DNA from: Trypanosoma brucei
Lineage: Eukaryota
Assembly (NCBI GenBank): GCA_000002445.1
Contig: CP000069.1
Coordinates: 672,001 to 736,000, forward strand
Length of the DNA stretch: 64,000 nucleotides
Reading direction: 5' to 3'
Of the stretch, positions 566 to 41,017 are shown piece by piece. A program made the position numbers and the translations under genes. Position 1 is the first letter of the stretch. Every line of letters begins with the position of its first letter. Below the pieces are notes generated by a model. It saw nothing but the letters and a program-made list of their open reading frames with translations. It was not told where the DNA came from and made no database searches.

Positions 566-817
566 ACCATAACCTGTATGTGTCACCAACCGCCCCCAGT
601 GCCGCTAACAGTCCGCTGACCCGTGGTAAGAGACCAACAAATACAGGAGAATACCTTAATACCGTGCTCTGATCTCATTACTCTGCAATGCCGGGGGTAC
701 ACTACGCGTATGTGTATCACGCGCAGGTGCGGCAGGCCGCCGGCTCTTGGCTTTCCCCCTCTGTAATACGGGGCACCGGCCTCGGACGTGCCAATGAGGA
801 GGCTGGCAATGGTGGGG
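566..817. repeat. Copy A of a roughly 250 bp dispersed repeat. It is present again inverted at 14766..15010.
   Basis: Direct comparison: 573..815 is the reverse complement of about 14770..15010. The ORF track also shows the same 42-aa peptide (MPGVHYAYVYHAQVRQAAGSWLSP...) at 688.. (+) and 14898.. (-). Confidence 0.8.
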
Positions 818-1448
818 AACAACTTCACCCTCCATCCGCCGCGAACACTTGTGCCTCAACTGCGCTCCCAGAGTCCCGACTCACGGGCGGTGAAGATCAG
901 TTTGAGTATGTCTTGTTCACAACGATAAAGCGCCCCGGACTAAACACAACTACCAATATACTCGTAAAACTTACCTGATTCCCAATAACCACATGACAAA
1001 ATTTACGCGTCACCCACAGCGGCGAGGAGCTTATGGTAAACATGCATATTTATTTGGGGGAACGCTCCAGGTGAACCCCAAGTTGTTTCAAACAACAGTG
1101 CCACACTGTGTAAAGAAATTGCACGCTCAAACGTCAACCATACTGCCCTAATGCAGCAACCACCTGAAGAGCACCCGACGAAACATCAAACGAACCAGGT
1201 GCACGCGGGCAGTCATTTCCACCTTTCCCACCAAAATCTCACTCACATCCGCGGGATCCGGTTCTAGTTGAACAAAGAGATTATTCTTTCCAACATCATT
1301 GCTGTGAGTTATCTGGAACCCCAGAACCGAACATGAACTTAGAAACGCCAACGAATTGCTCCTTGAGAGGCCCCACAAACACATTAAAAGGGAATCTAGT
1401 GGGGCTGTGACAATGCCTTCCTCAGCCACCCATGCATGCGTACGCGCC

Positions 1449-2018
1449 TTACCATGGGTCCGTCCGCCTCTCTTCACGGGTTATGGCAATATCCGGATCC
1501 CGAAGAACCCAGTGGCCGCGGTGCTGTGCAGGCACCTTCAAAGCCCTCTCACGGAGTGGGGTGGAAGGATCCGGTTTGGGGGGGTTAGGAAGCTCCGATG
1601 GCAGCACTGTTTCCTCCCGTTCGTCTAAAGAGAAGAAAGGATCAAGACGAGCAGCTACCGGCGCTTTGAAAACCCCATGTTGACGGCCAGCACTGGGCTG
1701 CATAGTTTGCTTCCCTATTATCATATCTAACTGCCGCATGAGCGGGTCGTCGTAAAGTTGGAAATATGATAATGCACCATGCAGCTTCTTTGTGTACAAC
1801 TTGGCGACTTTAAGCGAAGAAGACATAGTAAAGCACGGGCGGAAAGCTTCCAACTCTCTAAGGAACTCCCCCTCAATGTCGCTGCACGCTTTGGTGTTCT
1901 TGTCCGCCGCAGCGTTCTTATGGGCCAAATGAAGCTTTATTAGTTGAAGGGCCCCATCCAAAAAAGGGCCAGGGTTGTGGAGAGAGTTAGAACGAAGGGA
2001 CCGCGACAACCGCCACAT
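1449..2018 (-). CDS. Hypothetical protein, 189 aa
   Basis: ORF with an ATG start (cat at 2016..2018). It sits in the minus-strand cluster. No recognisable domain. Confidence 0.4.
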   Translation of the reverse strand: MWRLSRSLRSNSLHNPGPFLDGALQLIKLHLAHKNAAADKNTKACSDIEGEFLRELEAFRPCFTMSSSLKVAKLYTKKLHGALSYFQLYDDPLMRQLDMIIGKQTMQPSAGRQHGVFKAPVAARLDPFFSLDEREETVLPSELPNPPKPDPSTPLRERALKVPAQHRGHWVLRDPDIAITREERRTDPW

Positions 2019-2606
2019 TCGACCCCAATTGGTGGAAACGCAGGCACCAGCTCCCCACAGTTCTGCGATCCTACGATAGTACGCCTACTACATTGAGTGA
2101 AAATCAAAGGGGATGAACAGGGGGGAAAGGTCAAAGTATGCACCCGTTGATCTGTAACCGGCAAGTCGATCCCTTGCCAACCTAATGCACCGTGTACAAC
2201 TAGGAAAAAGAGGGTGTATTGTCTATTATCAACAACCTACCGAGCACGCGCAATCAACCCGTAAAACAACAACTCGCCAACCCATTAGTTCTCACCCTTC
2301 ACTTCACACTCATATGGGCAGACTCGCGAAGAAAAGAGGCACCTGAACACGGCACGGAGCCAAACCCATCTGTAACAGCGCCCTGTCCCTACATCAACGG
2401 ACCCTGCCGGGTTAAACCGGCAACACAGAAGACAGGAAGGGGTCGAGCAGATGAAACACAGTGCCGGAACGATAAAAAAAAATGGTATCAGGGTCCTTTC
2501 TTTGACGGAAACCCTATCACCGAAGGATTAAGGAAAAACTCGGAGAAAAGAGAGGGATAGATGACCCCAAACTGCTGGGCGACAGCGAAGGTGTGAGTAC
2601 CCCTCC

Positions 2607-3797
2607 TCACGGGTCACCCGTGTAACCCATCCTTTTGCTCTTCAAAATCTTTGGCATCTTCTTCCACTTCTCCTGGCGCGCAACATTCTTGAAGGCAGCA
2701 CTGCGATCATAAACACGGTCTTCGTGGACATAATCCTCAGGAAGAAGACCTTCCGCCTTCCACTTCTCTATTTTGTCCTTCACTATATCGTCAATTTTTG
2801 CATTAGGATTGTGCGAACTTGACCCCAGTGTTGAAGGAGTGTAGTCGAAGTAGAGCTGCCGCGGGGAAAATTGTCGCGGGGACCGAATGCTGCTGTGCCA
2901 ACAAACATGATAGTACATGTTATCATTCTCCTTGAGTGGTATGCGTAACTTTCCCGCCCCATGCCCACGGAGATCCGAATATGTGGTGCGCAAGAACTTC
3001 ACTTTCCGCTCGCCAAAATTGAACAAATACTTCTTGACGAACTCATAGACGTCAGCGTTTGTAACGGCATTAAGTGCAATGACAACAGACCTTGCCTCTA
3101 CACGATCTAGATCAGCCTGCACGTCCAACATCTCCTCCAGGACAGCCCGAACACCGTCCTCATCCCCCATGCGCCCAATGCTCTTTAACATAAAACTCCA
3201 CTGCGCTGTGTCGAAAAGTGGGGTGTAGTTCCACCCATCCTTCAAACAGCGATCAAACAGTGCCCTCCAGCCACTGTTGTCTGTCTTGTTGCAGTAAAAA
3301 AGTACAGATTTAACTAACGAAAGAGGGGGTTTTGCGGTGGCACCTTCCGCGGTAAAGCGCTGGTGACAGTATCGTTCCCACAGCTCCATAGCGCCGCCAC
3401 ATCTCTGGAAGGCGCAGTGCTGAAAGACCTTAGCCAACCAAAGATCTCTCGTCTTCTCATCGTCCACTAGAGGTGCCAAAGCCGTATAATCTGCAATGAC
3501 CTCTTCAGCAGGGGTTTTTGGTAGGGTGCGACCACGCGGTAGCTTCCGTAACTGTGGCTCCAGTGCAACACTAAAAGCGGGGTGCATATCAAATTCAATC
3601 CACACACCACGATACTTGTTAACCAACGAGTGGTTGCTCTGAAACGGTGCCGCGAAAGTTCGGTTTACTGAATGCGGCCGTTCCATTCCCTGGGGAAGAT
3701 TGTAATGCCAATGATACTGACTGTAGGCAACCATTGGCGAGGTGTCAGGATTCACAGGTGTATAGCCCACCGACCGGGGGCGGGTCGACCGAAACAT
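2607..3797 (-). CDS. Hypothetical protein, 396 aa
   Basis: Long ORF with an ATG start (cat at 3795..3797). The sequence is non-repetitive. Antisense-frame ORFs are short. Confidence 0.55.
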   Translation of the reverse strand: MFRSTRPRSVGYTPVNPDTSPMVAYSQYHWHYNLPQGMERPHSVNRTFAAPFQSNHSLVNKYRGVWIEFDMHPAFSVALEPQLRKLPRGRTLPKTPAEEVIADYTALAPLVDDEKTRDLWLAKVFQHCAFQRCGGAMELWERYCHQRFTAEGATAKPPLSLVKSVLFYCNKTDNSGWRALFDRCLKDGWNYTPLFDTAQWSFMLKSIGRMGDEDGVRAVLEEMLDVQADLDRVEARSVVIALNAVTNADVYEFVKKYLFNFGERKVKFLRTTYSDLRGHGAGKLRIPLKENDNMYYHVCWHSSIRSPRQFSPRQLYFDYTPSTLGSSSHNPNAKIDDIVKDKIEKWKAEGLLPEDYVHEDRVYDRSAAFKNVARQEKWKKMPKILKSKRMGYTGDP

Positions 3798-4608
3798 ATG
3801 GTCCTAAAAGTGCGATGCACACACACCAAATGGTAATCAAAACGATGTCCCAGGTTCTTACCGCCTAGGAAAGGGGGAGTTGCAGGCGTTTTGTAACCTT
3901 CCGGGTACCGAAAGTTCCGGGTAGACTCATAAAGAAATTTGAAAGAGGGAGTAAAAGAGAAACGTGCGTTTTTCCCGCCCTCGCATATGTGCGCAAATTA
4001 TGCGCGGCTCATCAACCGCGGTAGACTGAAGGGAAAAACCGAAAGTAGAGTTAATATTCCTCCCTCCGTTTAGCACCACTATCACGACCCTCCTATTTAC
4101 CGTGATTCGTGGATTCCCACCTCACAGGGTGACAAAAAATACGGAAGTATTCGTGGTTGCCTCACCCCAACGTCTTTTGGTCTTGCTTCCTTTTCTAACT
4201 GTGACGAAATCAAAGGAAAGGAATCTAACCCCGGGGGAAGGAAACATTTCATTTCCTCCATCCGGGAAACCCTACACTCCGCCTTCTATCGCTTTGAATT
4301 CCAATTTCACGTCATCCATGGCACCAAGAATAGAACACGTACAAGACAAACAACATACCTCCGCAACACCTATTGATTCCTCCCATTCCCTTGGCCCCAA
4401 TGTTTGTCGTTACCATCAAGTATATAAAAGCAACGAAAACCCCCTAAACCCCAATTTCACCCTCCCATCCTTTTCCATACTCCATGCACTTCCTTATACA
4501 ACAAATTCTACGCTTACACTCCCGATTGGCAACGCCCGTCGTCACCTAAAACGAGCGGCCTACGTACATTGCGAATTTGTTAGCATACGTAACGCCATCT
4601 CACCCCAC

Positions 4609-6741
4609 TTAGGCCGCCTTGTTCCAGGAAACTAGGCAGTGAGCACCAAGTGCGCACTCGTCGAACCTTGTAAGGCCACCGGTCTGCTCCAAGCGCAGAA
4701 CGCGGTATCCAGAGCGCAACAGTAGGGGAGGAAATGCAGTAGTGAAATCAAACGAAGAGCTATCCTGTACAAACTTGCAGTCAATCACCGCAACTGTTGT
4801 TTCATTACATCCTTCAAAAACAATTTTACTGCCCTTTACACTTGCTTTCCCAGCGCCATACACTCGCGCCGTGCTACTCGAGAGGGGTAGCCCCTTGATC
4901 TCTTGGGGGCCAGCAAGGATATCCACCGAAACACTCGTTGTTAATTTTCCATTTGTGTTGTTTTTGATGAGATACCCGCTCCGCCCATTGTCTACAAACC
5001 GACCTTGGGCCCATAGCCCTCCCTCTCTTGAATTCCCGTGGTCTATCAACTGAACCCCCATCTGAGTGGCAATCCCAATGCATTGCTCGCTGCTGTGCTC
5101 GTCGACGTCAGAGAAAAATGCAAAGTGGTCATCAAGACTGTCCTGGTTCGGTTTTAAAGAAGGAAGTACATCGGCCGTAAGAACTACCACCTCCCATGGT
5201 TTGAGGTTTGTTTTCTTCTTTGCATACTTCAAGAATAAGAGGTCGGACAAAGCCGCAGACTCGCTTTTGTCTTCCCTATCGACAGCTCCCCCCACCACAA
5301 TCTTTAGCTCGTCCAAATTCTCCCTCTTCAACGTAAATTCTTCGCCTAATTCCAGTTTTTCCAGTTGCTCGCGTAAGTGTTGCTTATTTATGATGGCTTC
5401 ACCATTAATATGAGTAAACCAGTCATCTTTCGATACTCCTGCCTTCGCTGCTGGAGTTCCTGTAACAACATCCGTCACGCGCACACCCAAGCCATCTCTG
5501 TTCATGTCCGCCATCAGACTTCCGACAAATGGCTTCAACGGACTTTGGTATCCAAGTACGAGCACCTTCTTCCGTTGAGCAGCGGGGCTGAATTTTGGAT
5601 CGCTAATGATAGCACCCTCGAACATGAGCCCCTTTGCTAACATCGTACCAAGCCCCTTGCTCAGTATTTCAGCTAGCTCATCCTTCAGTTGTACCGGCAA
5701 TGTATTTGGTGGGGATAGACACAGAATAATAGGGTATGGGATAGTCGAGAAACCACTTGTCTTGATACCCTCTATGATGCACGTCAAGGGGCAGCTTCCA
5801 CTGCAGAGCACACCTTCGCTATTCCTTTTTATTTTTAAGACGAACGCTCTGGAGTTGTCAGAAAGCGCCCGCTGGAGGTCACTTTCACTTTCAATACGTA
5901 TGGTTTTTATCAGATATCGAGTCAGCGGCTGTGTCATGTCTTGCCAAACACTTGTTGTGCGCGAGGGGTCTAACGCGTTGTTGGTCATCAACCCCATCAA
6001 ATACGTATTGAAGTTGTACCTGTGAACTATGCCACCGAAACGGTGGTTGTACTTCTCTACAATCTGGGCGTCGGCACGTTCATTGCCTTGGGTAACAGTC
6101 ACAAACTTCCCAAATTGCTCTAGAGTCATCACCTCACCGCCCTCTGCAAAACGCGGAAACAGATCCATCGTGGGAATCAGAGATGCGGAGTTAAGGTGAT
6201 CAATCAGCACCGAGGCGAAGTTGGTCGGTGCCCTGGAATCTCGCTTCACGTCTTTGCCCTCAGTCACATACTTTTCTGAACTTGTGGTGCATTGGTTGGC
6301 AGGGCTGCCACCGCTACTCATCCATGTGTTAAGCAGACGGAAGAAGCCAGCATCCACATAAAACTCTTTAACCGAAGGGAGCGTCTCAGATATGGTCTTC
6401 AGTTTTTCCCTCTCCGCAATTTTAGAAATTATTTCCACCACCGTTTCCATCTTCAACCGAAACTTCGTGCGTGTGATCTCAGCGCACGAATTCATGAAAC
6501 TCAAAGAAACTGCGTCACGCTCCTCCTGGGAATGAAAGGTGAAACGCTCACTCAAAACTGACTCCACGCTTCTCAGAAAAGTCTTAAGATATTGCTCTGC
6601 ACCTGTCTGGTGCTCGTAAGCCGCCGGGTTCGAGTGGTTCTTATATCCACCACCTTGACGTTGGGACTCATCACTTAAGCGGTTTCCCGGTGGGGGAGCT
6701 AGTTGATCTCTCTCAAAACTTTTAGAATTGCACAAACCCAT
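4609..6741 (-). CDS. PI-PLC-like protein with an internal PDZ domain and an N-terminal MGLCNSK dual-acylation motif. It appears to lack the catalytic X-box histidines.
   Basis: An X-box-like DMTQPLTRYLIKT matches the DMxxPLSHYxIxSSHNTYL pattern, but the SSHNTYL histidines are replaced. A Y-box-like RFVDNGRSGYLIKN matches FxxNGGCGYVLKP. A PDZ-like segment (...GVRVTDVVTGTPAAKAGVSKDDWFTHINGEAI...) is present. The start is moved to the first ATG (MGLCNSK; cat at 6739..6741). The track start at 6876 is non-ATG. Confidence 0.6.
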   Translation of the reverse strand: MGLCNSKSFERDQLAPPPGNRLSDESQRQGGGYKNHSNPAAYEHQTGAEQYLKTFLRSVESVLSERFTFHSQEERDAVSLSFMNSCAEITRTKFRLKMETVVEIISKIAEREKLKTISETLPSVKEFYVDAGFFRLLNTWMSSGGSPANQCTTSSEKYVTEGKDVKRDSRAPTNFASVLIDHLNSASLIPTMDLFPRFAEGGEVMTLEQFGKFVTVTQGNERADAQIVEKYNHRFGGIVHRYNFNTYLMGLMTNNALDPSRTTSVWQDMTQPLTRYLIKTIRIESESDLQRALSDNSRAFVLKIKRNSEGVLCSGSCPLTCIIEGIKTSGFSTIPYPIILCLSPPNTLPVQLKDELAEILSKGLGTMLAKGLMFEGAIISDPKFSPAAQRKKVLVLGYQSPLKPFVGSLMADMNRDGLGVRVTDVVTGTPAAKAGVSKDDWFTHINGEAIINKQHLREQLEKLELGEEFTLKRENLDELKIVVGGAVDREDKSESAALSDLLFLKYAKKKTNLKPWEVVVLTADVLPSLKPNQDSLDDHFAFFSDVDEHSSEQCIGIATQMGVQLIDHGNSREGGLWAQGRFVDNGRSGYLIKNNTNGKLTTSVSVDILAGPQEIKGLPLSSSTARVYGAGKASVKGSKIVFEGCNETTVAVIDCKFVQDSSSFDFTTAFPPLLLRSGYRVLRLEQTGGLTRFDECALGAHCLVSWNKAA

Positions 6742-7032
6742 GTCTCCCACCCTGAGAAAGTGGAACGGACAATTTAACGGGACGTAACATACCCCAAAAG
6801 AGAAAGTAGAAAAAACAGAAGGCAACTGAGCTTCATCGGATTTCAAAAGCGGTAGCACAGACACAAGCCAGTACAAGCAGGCAAACGTGTGAATTCACCT
6901 ATCCTTATGACTTTCAGATTTTTTTCAGAAGTGGTCAAGTGAAAGTAGGGAAAAAATTCAAAAAAAAGCGGCAGTGATACCGCACACAGTAAGCTAAATA
7001 ATGTATTGCGTCTCCCGTAGCAGATTTCCCGC

Positions 7033-7233
7033 TTAGCCGGCCTTTCCAGGCGGCTGTTTGTTCATACGGAGCTTCTCGCCAGGTTTCAACGTCTTGGCAA
7101 GGTAACGCTGAGTGTACTTCAGGCGCTTGAAGGCACGCCCCCGGGGCTGCTTCTTCTTCTCCTGCTTGCTAACCTTCGGCGTCTGGTTTTTCACCTTGCC
7201 GGCGCGGGCCAGCGATCCGTGGACCTTCCCCAT
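7033..7233 (-). CDS. RPS30: 40S ribosomal protein S30, copy 1, 66 aa
   Basis: [21 protein letters not shown]...[17 protein letters not shown] is the conserved S30 sequence. The 112-aa ORF in the track carries a spurious N-terminal extension. The CDS is trimmed to the MGKVHG start. Confidence 0.85.
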
Positions 7234-7498
7234 ATCTTGCCTTGCTGCTTTTACAGTGAGACCTGTGATAAGTAGGGTAAAAAATAAAAAAAGTAAAGGT
7301 GATAGAATCTTTAAGCGCAGCACGTGCGAAGTGCGCAACCCAATTGGAGGCGACTTCGTAAATACAACCACTTACGAGAAAGTTAGATATTTTCAACAAT
7401 GTTCACAGGATGATATGCACCCGAATACTGAAAGAAAAAAAACAAGGGCAAGGAGGAAAAAAAATTATGCACGTTGTTTTCCGCGGCAGATTTCCCGC

Positions 7499-7699
7499 TT
7501 AGCCGGCCTTTCCAGGCGGCTGTTTGTTCATACGGAGCTTCTCGCCAGCTTTCAGCGTCTTGGCAAGGTAACGCTGAGTGTACTTCAGGCGCTTGAAGGC
7601 ACGCCCCCGGGGCTGCTTCTTCTTCTCCTGCTTGCTAACCTTCGGCGTCTGGTTTTTCACCTTGCCGGCACGGGCCAGCGATCCGTGGACCTTCCCCAT
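7499..7699 (-). CDS. RPS30: 40S ribosomal protein S30, copy 2, 66 aa
   Basis: Identical to copy 1 except P/A at residue 51. The coding region and about 12 nt of 3' flank are duplicated with a roughly 466 bp period. The 5' sides differ. Confidence 0.85.
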
Positions 7700-7949
7700 G
7701 TTGAGAACCTTGGAAAACTAGCAAGAAAGAAGAAACCAACATTCAGCGGATCAGGCAGCGAAATTTTTTAAAATGCCAACTACACAACACACAACATAGC
7801 ACGGCCACCAGATACGAGAAAACGTAAACTACCAACGCATTTTTTTTAATCATTCAAAATGTCACTAAAAAAGAAAAGTAGGGGGAACTAACGATTACAT
7901 CTATAGCACACACAATCATTTACATGAAACACAATATTCAGACGGTACT

Positions 7950-8702
7950 TCATCGCTTCCTTCTCAGCGTGACTGGTAACGGAGTGGGAGAGAAGCGCGG
8001 TGGTCCCGTAAGAAAGGTCCTCTCAGTCGTCGAGGGCAAACCGTCACTCCGAGCCCCAGCAGGGCAGCGTTTAGATTTCTGCTGTGGATCAGACCCACCA
8101 GATACGCACTCTCCTGTTACCGCCGGTCCCCCACTACCACCTGAATAACTATCTTTGGTCATCTCTCTCTGTTTATACGTCCAATACGAGCGCCGGTAAG
8201 GGGTAAGCATGGCAGGAAATGAAGACGTGTACGTTCCCTTTATTCTGTTGTATGAGCGCAGCAGACTACCCCGCAAGTCTCTATCGCACGAAGCAACACC
8301 GTCCACAGCGGCCGTATCTGCACAGTTGTCACTACTTTTGCGTCCTTTCCTTTGCGGTGCACTGTGCTTTCTCACACTACCTTGTGAATCTCCTCCCGCA
8401 GAGGCAGCGTGCTGTAGGGGCGTGGCGACACCAACCGCGGCCCCTGTGGTCTCAGTGGTTAACTCATCGGCCTTCCTAGAACGCTGACTTCCGTCGACAC
8501 ACTTCCGTTTTGACATAGTGAGGTAGGAGGCCTTCGAATGTTCCTGCCTCGTCGGGACGTACGGTGCCCGACACGTTTGAAATTTCAAGGAAAGCAAATA
8601 CTTTTGCATATAACGTGTGCCCTGAAGCCAATCCTCAAAAGGTTCCGGGTGGTCAAGCGCCTTAACCAAGCTCCGGCTGTTAAACCTATCCGCACCTGTC
8701 AT
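7950..8702 (-). CDS. Hypothetical low-complexity S/G/R-rich protein, 250 aa
   Basis: ORF with an ATG start (cat at 8700..8702). A polypyrimidine tract lies upstream on the coding strand. Low-complexity composition lowers confidence. Confidence 0.35.
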   Translation of the reverse strand: MTGADRFNSRSLVKALDHPEPFEDWLQGTRYMQKYLLSLKFQTCRAPYVPTRQEHSKASYLTMSKRKCVDGSQRSRKADELTTETTGAAVGVATPLQHAASAGGDSQGSVRKHSAPQRKGRKSSDNCADTAAVDGVASCDRDLRGSLLRSYNRIKGTYTSSFPAMLTPYRRSYWTYKQREMTKDSYSGGSGGPAVTGECVSGGSDPQQKSKRCPAGARSDGLPSTTERTFLTGPPRFSPTPLPVTLRRKR

Positions 8703-8835
8703 GGCTCAGAAGATCTTCTCCCCACATCCCAAAAAGAGGGCAAAAAAAATTAAAACAAAGTGAGATTCAGAAATGACGATCTCTCCGACGCAATCAAAAA
8801 AGAAAAAAAAGCAACAAGTGAAGTGACAGTATTCT

Positions 8836-8856
8836 CCCCCCCCCCCCCCCCCCCCC
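8836..8856. repeat. C21 homopolymer, which is a G21 run on the minus (transcribed) strand
   Basis: Uninterrupted C-run in the intergenic region, immediately 5' (minus sense) of the polypyrimidine tract of the 7950..8702 gene. Confidence 0.9.
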
Positions 8857-8915
8857 GGTGGAAAAGGCCGACACCTCCGTTGAGAGGGAAATGGGGAACA
8901 AAAGGGACAATACCG

Positions 8916-9443
8916 TTAGTTAGAGGTACCACCACGCTGCATCAATTCCCGGAGGCGCAACTCGTCGCTAGAAGGTAAATTTAACGCTTTTTGTCGCTGA
9001 TCAAACATCATTTTCGCGATCGTGGCCCGTGCGCTGTCGTCGAGTTCGGAGATATGTTTGCTCGGTGGCCTGAAAGTCTTCATGTCTATTTGTCTCTCAT
9101 TAGTTGTGACACATGGCCACCACTCTTCGTACTGGGCGTTCGTTTTCACCAAAGTCACCACAAGCACACTTTTATCCTCCACACACCACGTACATTCGTC
9201 TACTTTCACTGGTTTGTACAGGTCACCAGAAATCAAGGGTGATTGACCCTTCATGCCTATTGTTAACGAGGAAACTTTTACGTCCACATTAATCATCTTT
9301 GTGGGTGTGTCAGACGGCAGTGGAACCTTAACGATCACTTCAGTGTCTGTTTGACCAAACGAGTATCTTCCGTAATCGCCTCCACACTCCTCGTTACACG
9401 GTAAGAGGTCAGCCATGTCCTTCTGACTTTCAACTAAAGACAT
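8916..9443 (-). CDS. CS-domain (p23/NudC-like) protein
   Basis: The central region (VKVSSLTIGMKGQSPLISGDLYKPVKVDECTWCVEDKSVLVVTLVKTN...EEWWP) resembles the CS/p23 fold. The start is moved to the first ATG (MSLVESQ; cat at 9441..9443). The track start is TTG. Confidence 0.55.
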   Translation of the reverse strand: MSLVESQKDMADLLPCNEECGGDYGRYSFGQTDTEVIVKVPLPSDTPTKMINVDVKVSSLTIGMKGQSPLISGDLYKPVKVDECTWCVEDKSVLVVTLVKTNAQYEEWWPCVTTNERQIDMKTFRPPSKHISELDDSARATIAKMMFDQRQKALNLPSSDELRLRELMQRGGTSN

Positions 9444-10381
9444 CTGCTGGCTCTTTTGTGACAAGCAATCTCCTATAAAGAAGCGGTAGCACTTCAACAA
9501 AGCGAAGTGGATGTGGGGGGAACGCAGCGATTGTCAGAGCAGCATTTGGGATAACATACACTCTGTAAGCCTGTCTTCGCCGAATTTTGGCAGCAAACAA
9601 ATCAATCTAGAAGCAAGAAGGCTGATCTCTGTAACACATTTATCCAGCAACACACTCTTACCCGCTCCCTGGTAACTCAGTCAAAGCCGCATCGTAATGG
9701 GAGCTTCGGTCCATTCAACTACCGTCCATCGTGACAAACTCAACCATTTCTTGAGAACAAAAAAGGTAAGTACATTTATGTAAACAAGATGAATAAAGTA
9801 AATACCGTGCGGTGCAACTTCATCGTGAGGCATCACTGCATACGAGACCATAACCTTACAACGATTAAAATTCTTATATACAAGTCGACTCGTTCACTAA
9901 TTTCAGCGACAAAGCGCGGTCCAAGTCGCAACAACGATGACATCCCTTCATCCTAAAATGTAAACATTCCTTTATCCAGATCGCACTACCAGGTACGGAA
10001 ACGGATAAGCAATCTACTTCCAAATAATGATTCTTCCACGGGTAAATTGCCTGGGGAGACCGACCCTCAAATACGTCAATCCAACTGTATCCCCTAGAAG
10101 TCCACCGACCCATATCGGCTTCGACACAACAGTGAGGTTCACCTTCACTCTTATCTGCTCAGATAGAGAGAGCACCAGCATTCATTTCGTTAACTTATCA
10201 TTATCTCGCACTATATAAGTGCCGACGCCATACCACACAACAACAACAACAACAACAAGATTAAACAGCCAAAATGCGGGTGCTGGGTCTGGTTTAAAAA
10301 AAAAGTGAAGGTAAAGATGTAAATGTCATGAGTATCTGAAAAAAAGTAAAAACTCATGGAAAGTCCTGGCATCCCTCATTC

Positions 10382-11185
10382 TCAGGTTAAGGACGCAGAA
10401 ACACTGCCATATGCACCATAATTAACCTTGTATTCTCCTGCAAGGGCAGGGGATCGTGACCCCACACCGCTGCAAAAAATGTAGTGCTTTTCTCGAAGGG
10501 GCCAACCCATTGAAGCAGCGTAAGAAACTGCTAAAGCTACTGCCGCACCTGGTCCGCCCAAGCAATTCTTTCCAGCACCTACTTGTATAGGCTCTTCTCG
10601 GCGAGTTACTACAAAGTTGGTATCGCCCAGCGATTCAAGGGACGCACTCCCCAAACTCACAGCCTCACCAAGGTGTACAGCTACGCACCCACCCAAATCC
10701 GCTGCGAACCCTGTTGTATGGGGAGGATAAAAGGGATACCGTGACCCGACGAACTCCACACCGGGGAAAAAAGCGTCACAAACAGCTGGCACTGTGTTGG
10801 CTGTGAGTTGGGTCGGGGGGTCACGACCGAGACGAATAACGAAAAGTGGTTCAACAAATTGTATTCGGTGTTGTTTTGCCGAAAAAACAGAACCCTGGAA
10901 AGAGTTAGAAAAAATGGGAACACACACCGGCTCTGTGGCTCTCAAACACTGAAGGGGTGGTGAAGTTGGGGGAACAACCTTAATACCCACGTAATTGAAG
11001 TTGTGATCTTTCATGGCTTCACAAAGAAGCGAATGAAACTTGACGAGCTCTCCGGTACCTGTTCCGTGACGCGGAAATATCTCACTTAGTGCAGGCAACT
11101 CTCGATCAGAATTCTGGAGGTAGTCGACATAGCTTTCAGCTGAGACCTTCGAAATAATCAACCGACACCACGACCAGCGGAACAT
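10382..11185 (-). CDS. Hypothetical protein, 267 aa; possibly a hydratase/decarboxylase-like enzyme
   Basis: ORF with an ATG start (cat at 11183..11185). The family assignment is not secure. Confidence 0.45.
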   Translation of the reverse strand: MFRWSWCRLIISKVSAESYVDYLQNSDRELPALSEIFPRHGTGTGELVKFHSLLCEAMKDHNFNYVGIKVVPPTSPPLQCLRATEPVCVPIFSNSFQGSVFSAKQHRIQFVEPLFVIRLGRDPPTQLTANTVPAVCDAFFPGVEFVGSRYPFYPPHTTGFAADLGGCVAVHLGEAVSLGSASLESLGDTNFVVTRREEPIQVGAGKNCLGGPGAAVALAVSYAASMGWPLREKHYIFCSGVGSRSPALAGEYKVNYGAYGSVSASLT

Positions 11186-12151
11186 ACCCTTTAACGGGGG
11201 AAATAGAAAAACAAAACAAAAGGTAGATGTTTCCCTACCGTTTCCCTCTTACCTCAAATCCGACTAAAAAGAAAAGGTAAAGGGGCGACTATAAATCTGC
11301 ACGTATGTTACATTTAAGCGGTACGTTATTCGGATAGTCATCCCAAACATGTTTTTCTCGCTCCAGAAAGTTGCAAATGCACAATTCGACGTTCCATGTA
11401 CGTGAAATCCACAGTAAACGCCAGAGCTACGAAAGGAGGGAAACATCCCAAGGAAACCAAAAATCAGCTACACAAGCATACATCTTGTCTGCGGAAGAAC
11501 AAAAACAAAAACACGGGATATTCATTCTGCCATATTCCCGGTGCTGCCTCAGCGGAGGGGCTGATTCCACACTCCAGGCTACCAAGCAAAATATCCCAAA
11601 TTCCTTATGAGGAAACTGGGTCATGTGCGCACAGCTCATTTCGCTTCGCTATGCGCGGACTGTGTGTTGAACACACTTCCGTAACGTTGTAGATATTGAC
11701 CAATGCTTCGCAACATTAGGCCAGTCTCATGCAATAACTTAGAATAATATCTGTTTATTGAATCGTACTCCCCTGTTCTCAATGAATTCAGCATGGGGTG
11801 CGTGCTTATAGACAACAATCCTTTATTCTCGCACTATCAGATTTCGCTTAACACCCCTTACCCCACGCATTATATCTACTTTGAATATTAAAGAAGGGGG
11901 AAAAGAAAAATACACAAAGAGACATGTCTCACGTCCACGCCGCGAAAACAGAGTTTTCATGGTGTTATATAACAATTACACGTTACAAATTTGTTTGGTG
12001 AGCACATTTGCACCTCATGCAACGAACTCGCGAATTGCGCCCACTCTTGCGTTCCCTGTACAACGAAAACATAACACAACTCATACACATGGTAGGAACG
12101 ATTGCTAACAGGTAACAGTGTTTCCAAACGAAAATTTTTGAACTTACAAGA

Positions 12152-13795
12152 TCACGCGGAGAAGAACAGACTCCGTCCAACGCTTGGGTGATGAGAATGA
12201 TCCTTGCTAGATGTTGCAGTTGGGTCAGATCGAAGGGTTCGAGAGGCAGCCAAAAACGATATATCGTCGGGGGAAGGAGAACACAATGACTCTTCAATTC
12301 TCTTCGCGAAGCCATGCGACGCCTCCCCAAACTCTGTTGCCAGTGCCCGATCCAGCATATCCCGGCAAAACGAATCAGCCTTAATACTCAGAGCAGTATG
12401 ATAATGGGCGATAGCCATTTTCATGTCACCCATCAAATGATGTGTAAATGCTAGAGCGCAGTGGCCGTGGCTTGCGCTCGGACGACATTTGACATAGAGG
12501 GTGTAGAAGGCAATCGCCTGTTTGTAACACTGAAGCTTTCTGTAGACAGTTGCCAAATTAAAAATGATACAGTCTCTGTGCTCTGATGCATTTTCAGGAT
12601 TAACAAGGGATTTGTAGGCCTCTTCAAGCATTTCACGGGCCTTATCAACCCGTTGGGTTCGCATGTACAAAACGCCAATCTCGTTTAGTACCAAGGGGTC
12701 GTTGGGCATCGCCTTCTTAGCCTCCTCGAGGAAGTGCGACGCCAGTCTCCACTGATGGGCTCGACCATATTGCATGCCAACAAACGTGCTGCAACAAGGT
12801 AGTCCGGGGAAGAAGTTCATCGCACGTCTGTACACAATCAGTGCCTGCTCTCCTTCCTCTAATTTCGCATAACAGTGACCATACGCAATCCACGCCTCTG
12901 CAAAGGAGGCATCTAATTCCGTCGCCCTGGTGAAAAATCGGCCGGCACGCTCATAGTTGGATAAAGAAAAGTGGAAACAACCAACAGCATAAACTGCAAG
13001 TTCGGCATGGGGTTTGCTGCTGCAAAGTAGGTGAGCCACGTCAAACAGCTTTGAGGTGGCTTTCATATCTACAAGAATGGAAAGATGCAAGCAAACACAT
13101 TCTCTATTAAATGGTGAGATTTTTAACAAGCTGGTAGTCAAACTCAAAGCCTGTTGCAAATCATTTCTTTCATACTCAGTCCGGGCAGCTTGTAACAATA
13201 AGGTGGTCCTCGGAATATACTTGTCAAACTCTTTGGGAACAAATTCACCTGGTAACCGAGCATAATAGGAAGCACGCAGTGCTTCGGCCTCGGGTGGCAG
13301 CCGTAAGGATTCTATAGTGTCACGCAACTCGTTGACACCCAAGAGCCTTCTCTCAATCAGTGCATTCATAGGCTCACCACAAAACGGGTCAATATCCAAT
13401 GCCGCACAATAGTTATGAACGGCACGCTTTGTGTCTCCTGAAAGCTCAGCGCACCTTCCAAGGTAGCACAAAGCCACAACGTTCATGGAGGGACTGTCTT
13501 TCAGTCTTTCTGCATAGGCGGAACACCCCCTCACATCCCCTAATTCATAGGCCGACTTCATAGCTATCGCCACCGCCTGCATATTTCCCTCAAAATCCTT
13601 TGCCACATCCGCAGCGATGCGAAACGCTTGATCATAATCTCTGGCAGCAAGCAACGTTGTCGCATGAAGAAGCGAAAACTTGACTGAAGTGGGGTTCACC
13701 TCCCGCAGCATGGCGGTGAGTGGGACAGCATTAAGAGGCTGTTCGGTTTCCAGGAATCTCTGCGCGTTCGATTCAAGTACAGCTGACAGCTCCAT
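12152..13795 (-). CDS. TPR-repeat protein; possibly an APC/C Cdc16/Cdc23-like subunit
   Basis: Multiple TPR-like 34-aa motifs (e.g. AIAFYTLYVKCRPSASHGHCALAFTHHLMGDMKMAIAHYHTALSI). The start is moved to the first ATG (MELSAVLES; cat at 13793..13795). The track start is GTG. Confidence 0.6.
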   Translation of the reverse strand: MELSAVLESNAQRFLETEQPLNAVPLTAMLREVNPTSVKFSLLHATTLLAARDYDQAFRIAADVAKDFEGNMQAVAIAMKSAYELGDVRGCSAYAERLKDSPSMNVVALCYLGRCAELSGDTKRAVHNYCAALDIDPFCGEPMNALIERRLLGVNELRDTIESLRLPPEAEALRASYYARLPGEFVPKEFDKYIPRTTLLLQAARTEYERNDLQQALSLTTSLLKISPFNRECVCLHLSILVDMKATSKLFDVAHLLCSSKPHAELAVYAVGCFHFSLSNYERAGRFFTRATELDASFAEAWIAYGHCYAKLEEGEQALIVYRRAMNFFPGLPCCSTFVGMQYGRAHQWRLASHFLEEAKKAMPNDPLVLNEIGVLYMRTQRVDKAREMLEEAYKSLVNPENASEHRDCIIFNLATVYRKLQCYKQAIAFYTLYVKCRPSASHGHCALAFTHHLMGDMKMAIAHYHTALSIKADSFCRDMLDRALATEFGEASHGFAKRIEESLCSPSPDDISFLAASRTLRSDPTATSSKDHSHHPSVGRSLFFSA

Positions 13796-14019
13796 ATTCC
13801 TCTTCGTAACTAATTCAGTTGCAAAGAAAAAAGTTAGGGCACGAGAAGAACCAATATAGAACAAAGCATGATAAAGTGGGATTGAAAACGTTACAATGTA
13901 CGAATAACAAACACCACAGATACTAAAAGGGAAAGAGAAATTCTCCTGCATACCCTCACCAAAGCACACTGCAACGAACAAATCGCAGTAAGAGTGAAGC
14001 TGTACAACACAGACCACCA

Positions 14020-17000
14020 CAGGCGAGATACCGAAATAACTTTGAATCGGTACTAGCCAAAAAACTAAAATAAATCAGCACTCCAGCTTAACATCAATCT
14101 CCTTCGACACCCATTAAACAAAAAGTGTGGGAAACAATGTAGATACATTTAATGAATCCAGTGATTCAGGCAATCTGCATGAAAGTTGCAAACTACACAC
14201 CCTGAAGAAGCATGTGAATCCACCACTGGGACAGTATAAAGTACAAGGATGTGGACCCTACAGACACCGACAACAGTCCAACACATTCAGCAGTACCTAT
14301 GACGAAATCGTAAACAAACAAACAGAGGGCAAGGAAAACAAAAGATAACTACATCAAGCTCCCGGAGGCCCGGTGGATGATAAATATAATTACCCCCTCC
14401 CGCGAACACAGCTAGTGTCAGCTGACAGAACTGCAAATGGTAAACACAAAGAAACTCACAGGAAGGGCAAGGAAACCAAAAACGGAGACACCGGATTCAC
14501 TGTGCGAAAACGTACGAAACCACCAACGTCGAGGACACACCTCTGACACAAAAGCGCTAATAAGACCCCCGTAACTCCCTCCGATCCCTCCCCCCCCCCC
14601 TCATCCGCACCTGCACCAAGCACGTGTGCACACCACATGCAGCAGCGAGTTCAACCAAACAAAACACGCCTGACAAACATCCCAGAGCACGAAGCACAAC
14701 CTCTAAACGGGCTCCTGAAGAAGATAGCAGAACCCTAAAGAAGGAGAAACCGCCCCACATCGGCAACGTAGCACCATTGCCAGCCTCCTCATTGGCACGT
14801 CCGAGGCCGGTGCCCCGTATTACAGAGGGGGAAAGCCAAGAGCCGGCGGCCTGCCGCACCTGCGCGTGATACACATACGCGTAGTGTACCCCCGGCATTG
14901 CAGAGTAATGAGATCAGAGCACGGTATTAAGGTATTCTCCTGTATTTGTTGGTCTCTTACCACGGGTCAGCGGACTGTTAGCGGCACTGGGGGCGGTTGG
15001 TGACACAGCCCAAGGCGTCGCCGAAGCTGTATGCTGATCTGCGGCTATGCCCGACGATTACACCGCTCGCGGTCAGCCGAAGGCAGGGCATGCAGGGTCT
15101 TACGGAGGTGGGAAATCAACTTAAAAAACTCCTGAAACTTCCCCGATATTTGACTGCTGAGAGCAACCGCAACATCACCCCTTAGCACACGTACACTCCT
15201 CCGTGCCAGCCCCTGATGGGATGCCGACGATACTTCTCATGTTCGCCGATTCGGTGAAAAAACTGCCCCTAACCTTATCAGCATCACTCTCGTTATTATG
15301 GACACTTCTTGCGCATACAACTCCTCGACTCTTGCAGGCTTCGTTGCGTGGCCCGGTTACTATGGCGCCTTCCTCAACGCATACCTCTACAGGCCACTGC
15401 AAGATTTAGTGGAGGAGGCGCCATCCCCCGAAACGGTATGCGCCCGCTTTGGCAGTCCAAACATCAATGAAGTCATCTTTTGATCACTAGGTATCGTGGA
15501 CAGGTCCAGCCCGTGGGGTTACATTTCAGCTTCCGTCAACCCGCCTCTGTTTGCGTTAGCATAAGGTTGCCGGCGAGGAAAAGGTTTCATATATTCTGTT
15601 TACATTGGTTAGTGGCTCAATGGATCCATCGTTCACGGCCATGAACAGAACAAAGTCGGACACCGTTCTTTTTGCCACACGACACGGTCATGTGAGATTT
15701 CCCCAAAACTCGTTGGTTTGTACTGACTCTCGCTATCTTGTTTGGTGGAAAGTTTCTTACCCACCACATAATTTGTAGGTTAGGAGATAACTTCTCAGGC
15801 ACTCGAATTGCGTCACCACTCTCCATGGGTCCAAACTCACGAGTGTAGAGTTAGCTTGACCGTGCTGAGTACATTCGGTTCGTACGAAGTTGCGTCTCCA
15901 ATCAACTGAGTTATCGATTCTGCTGCCGAAGGTTGGCGCAGAAACCTTTTCCTTTTGTAGGCACAACCAACGGTCAACGGAATCCACAAATCTCCTTTGG
16001 ACCAACTACTGCATTGCTTTGTAATTGGCGCAGGTGGGCGCTGTTAGTTTTTGACGATGCCATGACAGCAGTCCCCTTGCTTTCCCTTAACGCCAGTTCA
16101 ATAGCTTCACACCTCCACTTTCCCCGTCAGTTCCCAGTATTTTCGATTCCCGTTGAGTAGTTTTTACATGTGGTTTAGCCCGTTTACCTCCATGTTCTTT
16201 AGTTGGTACACCACAAACGCCATTTTCTTCAGCAGAAGAAGGAAATTTCGATCTTCCTGTGGCAACAATCGGCTCCGGCGTGTGAAACGGTTTGAGTTTC
16301 GCGTGTTCTCAACCTCTGGCACGTTCTTTACCGGGGCATCTGAGAGTTTTGTCTGTCGTTGGTGGCGCATATTTGCCGTTGGTCGCTACCCCTGCTCCTT
16401 CTATCAGCATCTTGCCGTTTGCGAGCAGCACAGAATTGACAATAAACCCATGACAAGCATTAAGGCCGATTATTCCCAGCAACCTTCTTCCGTCACTAGA
16501 TGTTCGGATGAGTCTCTTTTGGATTGTTGAGGTGGTTCCGTATATTGTGTTTTTTCCCCGATATGACGATGATATTGCTTCTCCTTCTTCCCCAATGCCT
16601 CTTTATCCTCATCCTAAATTCTGAGAACTTGATGCCTCGCGTCGACCGGCGTCGCTTTTTCCCCCAGGAATGGTTCTCGTGGAGTGGCCGGGGGTCGGGA
16701 TTATACTATCGTCCATGCTGCTTATAGCCTTCGCTGACTTGCGGAGTCTTCTCTCCATTTTTTTTCTATTTCCATTGGGTGATTCATCACCGTTCTGCAC
16801 TGTCCGAAAGATTGGGAGTATTGGGCATACACTTGTTGTTATTCCATCCGTCCATAACCAAGTGTTGGAGTCAAGTGTTCTTCAGCAGTGGTCGCCGTCC
16901 TGTTTACGATTGCTTGTGCATCCTCGAGGTTCGGCATCTGGGGAAGTGGTGTCTAGGTTCGGTCCCGCCTTGAAGTCCTTTCATTCCACGCAATCGACCC

Positions 17001-18029
17001 CGCACTAGCGAGTCGCACCCCATCATATATGCTCTTGTCCCAGTTGCTTGGGTTCCGTTATTCCGCGAGGCGTATTGGTCTGGACGCAGTGGCGGGGGTT
17101 GGCGTACGCCGTCGCGGCCGGGGGTCCTCCCAACATGCTTGGTATTTTGACCTTCTGCGTGTGCCCGCTGAAACTCTTCATTGGGTGGTGGCCTTGCGGG
17201 TTTGCTTGGCGGGTCCCTCGCTATTTATGGTGTGTAGGTGACGTGCTCTCGGGTGTGCGACGGAGAAGTTTGGCGCGTCAAAGGCTAGAGATGTTAGTGT
17301 AGCTTCCGCCTCGGCTTGTGAGGTATGCGTCCCAAAGGTGGTGGTTTGTGTGTTTGTGTGTGTGGACGCCCTGGCTTCCTGTGGTGCCTCCACCCGAGAG
17401 GCACCGTCCCTGGTGGGGGTGGTTCAGGAAGCCTATAACCTTCTGGGGTCTGCCAGTAGTTTGTTTTCTTTGGATCTCCTTCCGGCATCCGCGCTGAGTA
17501 ATGGTGTGGGAGGGTGGATGCTTTTCCTTGCGGTACGGGAACCCGAGTTTCGGTGCAGTTGGAGTACTTTGCGTGCTCCTGGAGTCTAGCAATGTTTCCC
17601 ACCCTCCACCTGACTTCAAACAGTGCGCCGTTAGTGCTACTTCCACTTCCAGAAGAGGTGTCAGCGGTGGTCTTCCTAGCGTTTTGCTACGTGGTGATGG
17701 CTATCGGCTGCGGTCGTCTTCTCCAGTCGAAACGGATGTGACCGTAGTGCAGGCGTGGTGCTAGCGTTTTCTCTACCTGTTGCTGCCCAAAGCCGTTCTC
17801 CTTAGCGTCGTTTTATGTTGTTCGTTTTAAAATGACTGTCCTTAGCGTAGCGTTGCGTGCAGGTCGTATAAAGCTGCTCGGGCGCCAATATTATGTGTTT
17901 TGGGTGTAACCACCTTCTATTTCTTTCTTCGTATGCTGATTGTTTGTGGACTTATTTTGTTTGCCGGCGATGAGTTTCTGATTTGTATACTCAACTTGTT
18001 CAATATTTAGTTTTTTTTAAATGGCAACA
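14020..18029. promoter_or_regulatory. Divergent strand-switch region, a candidate RNA pol II transcription start region for two polycistronic units
   Basis: All credible genes to the left are on the minus strand and all to the right are on the plus strand. About 4 kb here has no convincing ORF. CA-rich sequence on plus (GT-rich on minus) lies at about 14100..14760. GT-rich sequence on plus lies at about 16100..17900. There is also a C11 run at 14586..14596. Confidence 0.5.
14766..15010. repeat. Copy B of the same roughly 250 bp repeat, in inverted orientation, inside the strand-switch region.
   Basis: The reverse complement of 566..817 matches here. The similarity ends sharply on both sides. 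Confidence 0.8.
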
Positions 18030-19761: not shown

Positions 19762-22700
19762 CGTAGTTAAATGTGCTTCCGACATAGTACGATATTAAGA
19801 AGAAGAGGGAAAGTAAAAAAGGAGGGCACCAAGATATAATAACCACCATTGACTTAAATAAATGAGAGAGCAGATGATTGACTCGCACAGGGGGCAAAGT
19901 GTAGCGGCACATCCTGTCATCATACTGAAAAAATATGCATTACTCCCTTTTTTGTTTTGCGCGCAGCAAACCTTGATTTTTATTTCTCCCCATTTTTTCA
20001 CCATTTTAGGTGTCAGTTATCGATTTTGTACTCCCTGCTTCCCCCTAATGTTGAGGAATCGATAAAGGATGAAGGATATCGTGCGTGGAGGGAGATCTTG
20101 TGTGGCTCGTCTATCTATTTTGTTTTCACGACCATTTAGTTTGCCTCGTCTGCTGTTTCAGCTAGTGTTGCCAGTAGTAGCACGGCTGTTGGCAGTAGAG
20201 AGACAGGATTATTTTCTACTCTGCGTCAGACTTTGACTTTTCTTTGGAGGATGGCAGTCATTTGTTTGAATCAAACTCTCGCAGAGGGCACCGACGGAAA
20301 AGCTTGTAGAACATACTTTATTCTATAAGCGGTCTTTGTTGCTCGTCCCTTTCTATTGTCTTTTGGTATTATCGATATCGGTTTGACGGAGAAAATAATA
20401 CCACCTGAATAAATTCCGGTGCTGAGCTTTCTTATTCAGATATCCTTCTGTTTTGGAAGTTGGGGGATTTCGGTGGAGGATAACGCGTCACCGCTTGGAT
20501 GTAGACGCAGAATGTCTACAGGTTGTTGCACGGCATACGGCACAGGGGATGGCGGTCTCGTTCCATATGTGGGTACTTCTAATCAAGATGCAGTAGTGGT
20601 AATACTTAGAATATATGGAAGGAGAGTTCGTTTCTATTGTATATAAAATCATTTGAGCCCGTTCCATTAGCGCACGTTGTAGTTTAAACGAAGCGGTTTA
20701 GAAGTTTGAGTACCACTGTAGGAGTTGACGTTTAAAAAAATTTTGATGTGAGTAAAGCACTGGTGGCGACGGAATAACTGGGTTGTATACCTGTGTTGGA
20801 TGGAGGTGCCATTACTTTTTTTGTTGGCTGGATTGTATGAGCTTTTATACTCAGGTGTTGTTCCAACTCATTCTGGTATAGGCTGAAGGCGAGTTCGCTG
20901 CAACGTTACTCTGCGGCCGCGCTGAACCATAATGAACCAAGGAAACTGGTCGTTTGTTAGATGGGTGTGCGGCAGAGGTGACACCCTTACAAAAGGATGT
21001 TGTTTCGTATCACTGGTGTATGTGGTTGCAGGTTATGTTTAATTTTAAACTTCCTGTTGTCACCATACCTGTTCTCTTCTATTTTTTCACATTGATTCTT
21101 GCAGGGGTGGTGACGAAACTGCAAGCATATGCGTCTGGAATTATAGGTAGTTATCGGAAGGACTCTGACGTGTAGCGGGAAAGCCGTAGGTGAGCTGTTG
21201 CTTTCTGGGACTTAGTTTCCTATTTTGAAAATCGTGGTCCGAAGGAGCATCGCTCAATCGGTCAGTTGAGCCCTGTTGGAGTGTGTAGCAGACTCTGCGG
21301 GCGCGGCCATAGACCCTTCTCATACGAACACGCAAGAGACTGCACACCACGTTGGATGCGACGCTGTCAGATGGCAGTAACCTATCTATTGTGGTAGCTA
21401 TCCCCCGGGGGGACACATTGGAGCGACAGGTACTATTGTAGCAGAGGCACAGGGTAGAGAGAGAAGTCTTTTGCCGCCGTGTGAGGTAGGGCTTCCGATT
21501 GCTGTGGCTTGACCGAGGGTACAGACTTTACCATGAGCACAGATACTGAAGATTTGACGTGTTGAGGGTATTCACTCGGAACTCCTGTCGTTACAGTCTC
21601 CCCAGTAAATGGATGTAGTTTCCTCGTGTAATGTGAAGGTGTGCAGGGATTTTCCCGGTGACGACAGTACCAAGTAACTGTCTGGTGGTGTTGTGATGTG
21701 TGTGTGTGGAAGGTGCCTTTTTGTCGGTTAGTGTGAAAGATATCTCCTTTTTACCCACTGGGTACTATCTGTGGTTAACTTCGAAGAGATTGACTGGAAC
21801 TAAGCGCGTACTTGTTTTGATGTTACGACAGTGGGTTCATTGGTGTCACAGGCTACACTACCCATTGAGACGAATCGTGCTTTACAGTGTGGTAGGCGGC
21901 AAGAAAGTCAGTGGTGGAGGTGAAGGGGTAGATGCAGCACGTCCCCATTTTATTTGGCCTACTCTGTGGTGCAGCGTATGTTTCCTGGTTGCATTTATTC
22001 ACCGCATGGGTTTCCGACGTTCTAGCGGTTTTGTAGTCCCCGTCATTCATTAATAGCGGTGTGTTTGCTCGTTCGGAAGTATTGAAGTTCGCATACCTTT
22101 GTCGTTGTTGTGACGATGGCAGCTAAGTAGAACCACATCTCTACAGTCAGCCGCTCTCTCTTAATGCTTCATCTTTTTTTTTTTTCGTAAACACCGGGGG
22201 ACTTCCTTTGTGTTCACAACCATTTATATTGGTTAGTTTGGCGAATACCGTAAGTCCCTTGATCAGCTTTCAAAAGGGTCAAAGAGGCCGGAGCGCTGGT
22301 TTATTGTGTAGTGGGGGTTACATTTGATGCATGTATTGGTTGGTGAACAATCGGGCACATTGGTGTGTTTGCTTGAGTGTGGTTCAATTATTTACTGGGT
22401 CTAACTTTGTATATTTGACGCAGCATTGTAATTTGTAAAGAGCAATTACAAAAATCATGAGCAACATCGGTACAACCGCATCTTCCACACCGTTGCCGCT
22501 TGCAGCCGTTATAACTCTGCCGTTTGGCATTTACAGTTTTGTGGGACAGCTCCGCAGCACAATTGTGTATTGTTCCTCATGAAATCCAGCATGAACTGCA
22601 ATGGGCCCAGTGGTGGAGGAAATGCAAAGTTTACGTTGTTCAGCTACTACAAAGAATGTGGAGCTTCGGCGATGCTTTAGTAAGCGGTCTTTATCTTAAC

Positions 22701-40610: not shown

Positions 40611-41017
40611 GGCGAGTTTATGGACACGTGTGTGTTCTTGACTTTTCTCACATTCGTATTGCGGTGTGCTGTTGCGAGCATTTTGCATTTTCTGGTGTTG
40701 GTGTTGGTGTTGGTGCTGGGTATAGGGGTGCTACTGCTTGTTTATATGTATGTGTGCGTGTAACTCTCACTAGCATATGAACTCGAGTACTTTCTTCCTG
40801 CCTCTGCTGCTCGTCTGTTATCATGAAGCAGGTACCTCCTAACTCCACTGAGTTTGTAATTGGGCGCATTTTAACCTTCCTGTTGCGTTGCCACTGTAAC
40901 AGCACTGTACCCCTTTCCTTCACTTCTGTGCATATGTGCGTGCCAACAACTTTCCGACGACCCGCTGTCTTGTAGAAAGTAGCAACAGGTGAGCCCGTCA
41001 CGCCTTCTCCCCTGACG

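Follow-up and report, generated by a model that had tools for sequence, protein, structure and literature searches.

A 236-bp inverted repeat at the start of a Trypanosoma brucei polycistron, probably a low-copy segmental duplication kept identical by gene conversion

Two copies of a short sequence face each other across 14 kb of Trypanosoma brucei chromosome 6, and the question they raise is what this sequence is and how its copies have stayed alike. The stretch of DNA analyzed here (the window, 64,000 nucleotides) corresponds to 672,001-736,000 of Tb927_06_v4, so that 672,000 is added to a window position to obtain the chromosomal one. A preliminary description of this DNA had proposed a repeat of about 250 bp with two near-identical copies in inverted orientation, 14 kb apart, at 566-817 and 14766-15010. 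The pair is real, as a repeat search of the 64-kb window reported a single inverted pair, with arms of 236 nt that are 100% complementary. The earlier bounds overshot each end by 3-13 nt, and the TREU927 arms are not merely near-identical but exactly identical over their whole length. An exact identity over 236 nt cannot have arisen by chance. The features referred to below are, in window coordinates:

579..814, plus strand: arm A of the repeat, 236 nt (TREU927 chr 6 672,579-672,814)
14772..15007, minus strand: arm B of the repeat, 236 nt (TREU927 chr 6 686,772-687,007)
815..14771, minus strand: spacer between the arms, 13,957 nt, with nine annotated minus-strand genes, the first of the polycistron; context, outside the repeat
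14590..14600, minus (sense) strand: run of 11 G (G11), read directly, about 170 nt downstream of arm B
ATG near 97, minus strand: HisRS gene, Tb927.6.2060

The element has sharp boundaries, as had been described. When the comparison was extended base by base past both arm ends, matching fell to random level, and a sensitive blastn (word size 7) of 3 kb around arm A versus 5 kb around arm B found no homology beyond the 236 nt in the ±2.5 kb flanks. With the same word size no third copy was found within the 64-kb window, diverged ones included. The element ends read TGTGTCACC... and ...GGCAATGGTG, and a UMS-like octamer, GGTTGGTG, is present at one of them. Arm A is flanked by ...CCTGTA and GGGAAC..., and arm B, read as the reverse complement, by ...TTGGGC and CTACGT.... 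The element was correctly characterized as GC-rich, with a G+C content of 58.5% compared to about 49-50% in the surrounding DNA. Both arms are found at the same two places in an independent Lister 427 assembly, which shows that the pair is no assembly artefact. An exact 32-mer from the element gave zero matches in metagenome and prokaryote genome collections, as expected, and six 20-mers of the element are absent from the searchable literature.

Other repeats are found further to the right in the window. A tandem duplication of 8.87 kb with 99.9% identity (39644-47461 and 48510-56326) contains four ORFs, encoding proteins of 188 aa, 250 aa, 929 aa (GTPase-like) and 347 aa, and a 396-bp piece of it (45062-45457) occurs in three copies, one of them at the duplication junction (48116-48511). 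An array of 87-bp (29-codon) tandem repeats at 32567-33262, with four perfect copies and diverged ends, lies within a 794-aa ORF (32537-34921).

To place the arms relative to transcription units we used the transcriptome tables of Kolev 2010. Tables S1 and S3 give the end of the Tb927.6.2150 CDS as 684,152 and the position of Tb927.6.2140 as 683,185-682,382, and these coordinates match exactly the ends of the window ORFs, one of which ends at 12,152 (Tb927.6.2150) while the other spans 11,185-10,382 (Tb927.6.2140). Every gene in the first 13.8 kb or so of the window is on the minus strand, and near 16 kb there is a change to plus-strand genes together with a flip in the sign of the GC skew. 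In Table S14 of Kolev 2010 the minus-strand genes form one transcription unit, Tb927.6.2150 to Tb927.6.1300, and the plus-strand unit begins at Tb927.6.2160. The statement that the pair brackets the whole minus-strand block is correct only in part, since the unit runs left beyond the window, to Tb927.6.1300.

Arm A is located in a head-to-tail intergenic region, as first described, between Tb927.6.2070 (189 aa, 1449-2018, minus strand) and HisRS. The signals expected to serve HisRS, the main polypyrimidine tract with its AG sites, are on the minus strand at about 180-250; a run of A is present at about 450-460. In trypanosomes, polyadenylation of an upstream gene is coupled to the splice site of the gene downstream. 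This coupling, together with the position of the HisRS signals, suggests that the poly(A) site of Tb927.6.2070 is likely to be downstream of arm A, and that arm A is probably contained in a long (~1 kb) 3' UTR of Tb927.6.2070, where it would be read as the reverse complement of the reference orientation.

Arm B had been assigned to the edge of the divergent strand-switch region and is indeed inside it. Upstream of the unit's first splice site by about 960 nt, arm B is outside all mature mRNAs mapped by Kolev 2010, who place this site, the major splice acceptor of CDC16 (the TPR protein, Tb927.6.2150), at 685,809 or window position 13,809. None of the novel transcripts of Kolev 2010 overlaps arm A or arm B, the nearest being Tb6.NT.48 (window 11,357-11,878) and Tb6.NT.51 (window 16,811-17,907). 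Such runs of G have been reported from transcription start regions in T. brucei, and the G11 run is relevant to the question on which side of the transcription start arm B lies. Arm B is also located exactly at the border between slowly and rapidly diverging DNA: TREU927 and Lister 427 share only 95.1% identity over the 1.8 kb of the strand-switch core (15008-16800), with 75 mismatches and 10 gap openings, but at least 99.5% in the flanking genes and in the DNA beyond the opposite end of arm B. As regards the first gene of the unit, the longest CDC16 ORF (622 aa, GTG start) and an old 599-aa annotation start upstream of the splice acceptor at 13809, within 13796-14020; the true start is the ATG at 13795 (547 aa), matching newer annotations and Table S1 of Kolev 2010.

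The nine spacer genes are Tb927.6.2070, Tb927.6.2080, a PDZ/PI-PLC-X protein, two copies of RPS30, a 250-aa protein, a CS-domain protein, H2F2 (Tb927.6.2140) and CDC16; a 267-aa protein bears the UniRef name REH2-associated factor. These are housekeeping genes, and their order is kept in T. vivax, T. cruzi and L. mexicana, so the spacer block is no mobile unit. The RPS30 gene (66 aa) is present as two tandem copies, 6996-7233 and 7462-7699 (466 nt apart), a duplication common to T. vivax and L. mexicana; in T. equiperdum one copy only is called.

The history of the arms was followed in loci from FN554969.1, which we take to be T. b. gambiense DAL972, from CM010677.1, presumably T. brucei Lister 427, and from T. 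equiperdum (OVI), whose identity is backed by the source name. T. b. gambiense and T. equiperdum have arm A at the same place, with 98.7% and 100% identity, respectively. Both arms are present in Lister 427 at orthologous places, and since both are also in place in TREU927 the duplication is older than the split between these two strains. Only the Lister 427 locus reaches both arms, the T. b. gambiense and T. equiperdum loci ending before arm B, so arm B was compared in two genomes, TREU927 and Lister 427. The element was not found in the syntenic loci of T. vivax, T. cruzi and Leishmania (L. mexicana), a comparison limited by the fact that intergenic DNA of T. brucei and T. vivax is unalignable, and no T. 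congolense protein was among the matches of the two ortholog searches. As far as the three outgroups show, the element appears specific to the T. brucei lineage.

Within the element only 3-4 sites vary among the strains. Two of these, positions 165 (G/A) and 225 (C/A), split the sequences into a 927/equiperdum type and a 427/gambiense type, and in each genome where both arms are available the two arms carry the same base at both positions. Without exchange between the arms, two parallel identical substitutions would be needed at 165 and 225. The simple explanation is thus that the arms exchange sequence by gene conversion, as suggested by these two informative sites in the two genomes with both arms. 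This is in line with the level of divergence. The TREU927 arms have zero differing sites and the Lister 427 arms have two (99.2% identity; one substitution, at position 43, and one 1-nt indel), so that the arm-to-arm divergence within a genome (0-0.8%) is below that between orthologous arms (1.3-1.7% between TREU927 and Lister 427). Between the same two strains adjacent intergenic DNA diverges by 0.4-1% and coding DNA by 0.06-0.4%; the arms diverge at least as much as the adjacent intergenic DNA, which argues that there is no visible purifying selection on them. In having lineage-fixed differences common to both arms, and arms more similar to each other than to their orthologues, the pair resembles segmental duplications homogenized by conversion, e.g. 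the arms of sex-chromosome palindromes, although its arms are very short and gene-free and provide two informative sites only. The preliminary description had raised the possibility that the pair mediates inversion or recombination. The bases shared at 165 and 225 point to recombination in the form of gene conversion, whereas an inversion is not seen in Lister 427, where the 20.8-kb locus is colinear with window 386-21186.

Taken together, the pair is probably an inverted segmental duplication of low copy number, comprising 236 bp of non-coding DNA, homogenized by gene conversion and at most a minor source of double-stranded RNA; the copy number is that within the 64-kb window. Most likely the element does not serve as a mobile element or RNA gene, and has no function of its own. 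We propose that a non-coding segment of 236 bp was duplicated in inverted orientation before TREU927 and Lister 427 separated, leaving one copy promoter-proximal in the divergent strand-switch region and the other 14 kb downstream in the same polycistron. The near-perfect identity would then be kept by intrachromosomal non-crossover gene conversion and not by selection on the sequence. A crossover between the arms would invert the nine-gene block against its unit and sever the downstream genes from their start region, which should be lethal, and consequently only conversion products would be expected to persist; the single orientation seen fits with this. If the minus-strand start is to the right of arm B, both arms would be read from the minus strand and the transcripts would be complementary over 236 nt. 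The likeliest molecular effect of the pair would then be double-stranded RNA, formed by pairing of these transcripts and entering the nuclear Dicer (DCL2)/AGO1 pathway, as known for the longer inverted repeats of T. brucei. With a minus-strand start to the left of 14772, arm B would not be transcribed in the required sense. We infer minus-strand transcription of arm B and the formation of dsRNA and siRNAs from this geometry.

A dispersed T. brucei repeat family of unspecified type, with further copies elsewhere and two of them in the window by coincidence, would also account for the sharp ends, the lack of flanking homology and the G+C content above that of the surroundings. Against such a family, just two copies are present in 64 kb, and the strain-specific bases common to both arms fit with a local pair that exchanges sequence. 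The element also has no terminal features of any known element class, and its six 20-mers are not met with in the searchable literature. We regard this explanation as unlikely, with some chance of being right.

The closest known counterparts of the pair are found in the same genome. Tschudi 2012 (BMC Genomics 13:427, PMC3447711) described seven near-identical inverted repeats in T. brucei, IR1-IR7, with arms of 422-10,011 bp that are 99-100% identical and with start-to-end spans of about 3.6-12 kb. All seven yield AGO1-bound small RNAs in an organism with nuclear Dicer DCL2 and AGO1, and the authors note the identity of the arms as unexplained (PMC3447711). The chromosome 6 pair is not one of IR1-IR7, as Table 3 of that paper has no chromosome 6 entry. 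It shares with them inverted arms on one chromosome, kilobases of unique DNA in between and 99-100% identity, and the smallest repeat, IR1 (422 bp, 100%), is of the same size order as the 236-bp arms. In contrast, the arms are shorter than any listed, the span of about 14.4 kb is longer than any, and one arm is in a strand-switch region. We would class the pair with these near-identical T. brucei inverted repeats, as a small member that had not been listed before.

This precedent is also the main reason to consider a functional siRNA or antisense module, in which the arm B leader and arm A together give rise to DCL2-dependent siRNAs that tune Tb927.6.2070, with the identity of the arms maintained by selection. 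The geometry permits it, since the arms are inverted within one transcription unit, and there are two unexplained DCL2-dependent small-RNA loci on the same chromosome. Additional file 5 of PMC3447711 lists two short "DNK" loci on chromosome 6, Tb927_06_v4_DNK1 and DNK2, "with no clear features" and with reads on both strands, which fall to 0.5% of wild type in dcl2-/-. The counts for the two loci are 5111 and 4248 in wild type and 606 and 274 in dcl1-/- (PMC3447711). Unequal counts are unlike reads assigned randomly to identical arms, and the DNK loci may well lie elsewhere; listed without coordinates, they are only a lead towards the arms. Selection on the arms is also at odds with their rate of change, which at least equals that of adjoining intergenic DNA, gene conversion suffices to explain their identity, and the loci compared in T. 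vivax, T. cruzi and Leishmania lack the element. A selected module of this kind is hence unlikely in our judgement. The more specific version, a natural gene-specific RNAi circuit in which discarded arm B leader RNA would pair with the arm in the Tb927.6.2070 3' UTR to produce DCL2-dependent siRNAs, we hold to be quite improbable. If true, it would couple the level of one mRNA to initiation at its own start region, and would provide control of an individual gene in an organism thought to be without such control.

The preliminary description had also suggested a short retroposon-derived element (SIDER/RIME-like), i.e. a relic of the ingi/L1Tc clade of non-LTR retroposons (RIME-, SIDER- or DIRE-like). 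According to PMC4748587 such relics accumulate in strand-switch regions, and ORFs resembling retroelements are found upstream of CDC16 in T. vivax and T. cruzi. The derivatives of ingi/L1Tc (RIME, NARTc, SIDER, DIRE) are, like the element, short non-coding repeats in trypanosomatid intergenic and strand-switch DNA. Unlike them, the element has no Pr77 hallmark, A-tail or target-site duplication, and two copies are seen in the 64-kb window. For Pr77 we used the L1Tc sequence (77-79 nt) from Table S3 of PMC8190864, which is the T. cruzi version and not that of T. brucei ingi. Smith-Waterman scores for both arms ±100 nt on both strands were 17-23, within the shuffle null (mean 18-19, max 26-29), and it is on these T. 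cruzi-based scores that the hallmark is called absent. No A- or T-run was found at or beside the element ends in either copy on either strand, and no direct repeat flanks either copy as a target-site duplication would. An Rfam E-value search, HDV-like ribozyme families included, showed nothing in support of a relic, and with tblastx/blastn the element had no similarity to the loci with retroelement ORFs in T. vivax and T. cruzi. The suggestion of a retroposon relic was not upheld by these data, and we find it very unlikely. The T. vivax and T. cruzi ORFs themselves (T. vivax locus 595-6307; T. cruzi locus 3759-6628) have no T. brucei counterpart and resemble retroelement remnants, one of them with a C2H2 zinc-finger motif; the start region of the polycistron appears to have been colonized independently in other trypanosomes.

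A small structured ncRNA gene in two copies, snoRNA-like or transcribed by Pol III, is about as poorly compatible with the results. The element is G+C-rich and contains one local hairpin, and its internal complementarity had been pointed out as a feature. For the 55-nt hairpin quoted at that time the predicted energy is -26.3 kcal/mol (z = -1.28), a stability reached by 19 of 200 shuffled sequences, so the complementarity is unexceptional. For the whole element the minimum free energy z-scores versus shuffles were +1.90 (plus strand) and -1.25 (minus strand). Rfam 15, whose models cover trypanosomatid snoRNAs as well as snRNAs, 7SL, vault RNA and ribozymes, gave no match at the gathering threshold over the whole window, and at E<=10 over 450-950 there was only a chance match to CRISPR-DR57 (18.6 bits vs. 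a gathering score of 39, E = 0.21). Trypanosome snRNA and 7SL genes need nearby tRNA genes. No tRNA genes were found nearby, and direct reading of the element revealed no pair of C box (TGATGA) and D box, no AGA-ended hairpin and no T-run terminator. No homologue is available outside the T. brucei group for scoring covariation, and the element is not conserved beyond T. brucei or listed among the novel transcripts of Kolev 2010. With the arms in opposite orientation in one Pol II unit, one copy only could yield a processed sense RNA. The earlier proposal of a structured ncRNA family is thus not supported, and an RNA gene is in our view highly improbable.

A protein-coding role fares no better. 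Of the reading frames across the element a single one is fully open, and a search of 5.8 billion proteins gave no homologue of it; exact look-ups of the 47-aa and 81-aa ORFs in the repeat matched nothing, and in three annotated genomes no annotated gene crosses the element. The view that it belongs to no credible gene was therefore well founded.

A cis-regulatory element was the third identity put forward in the preliminary description. Given the place of arm B beside the G11 run, in the strand-switch core, the element could in principle be a cis-acting DNA element of start regions (a promoter, boundary or chromatin-positioning element), with arm A marking an internal start. In the table of Kolev 2010 a single unit covers Tb927.6.2150 to Tb927.6.1300, with no start inside it at arm A, the arms are oppositely oriented relative to transcription, and their conservation between strains is no greater than that of neighbouring intergenic DNA. 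We give this explanation very little credence. A recombination switch, with reversible inversion of the 14-kb block through crossing-over at the arms, is extremely improbable. Homologous recombination in T. brucei can use 236 bp of perfect inverted homology, and sequence demonstrably passes from one arm to the other, but Lister 427, the only locus spanning both arms, is colinear with the window, and an inversion would put nine genes, CDC16 and RPS30 included, antisense to the polycistron.

Three further candidates were rejected. A transposon or composite element with the arms as terminal inverted repeats does not agree with a spacer of nine syntenic housekeeping genes or with the lack of a target-site duplication. 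The idea that the arms are ends of a rearranged synteny block was prompted by the presence in T. cruzi of DCTN5 instead of HisRS and by the retroelement-like ORFs upstream of CDC16; it was rejected since T. vivax and L. mexicana have the order 189-aa gene-HisRS-RRS1 as in T. brucei, so that the junction at arm A (189-aa gene/HisRS) is ancestral. In the T. cruzi locus it is a dynactin-5-like gene (20354-20804) that comes after the 189-aa gene, and this synteny break is T. cruzi-specific as T. brucei, T. vivax and L. mexicana all have HisRS there. T. brucei minicircles are A+T-rich, and an origin from kinetoplast minicircles was dismissed for an element with 58.5% G+C in which no CSB-1/2/3-like arrangement was seen on reading.

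The significance of the low-copy, conversion-homogenized duplication that we favour is small, as it is not a mobile element or an RNA gene but one further minor inverted duplication in a genome where several are already known. It would nevertheless present concerted evolution in T. brucei in a clean, minimal form, with short inverted arms, and it would offer a selection-free answer to the question of Tschudi et al. of what keeps such repeats identical. Should the pair give rise to small RNAs, this would mean that arms of ~240 bp, 14 kb apart in one polycistron, are enough for endogenous RNAi, and Tb927.6.2070 would be a candidate endogenous target.
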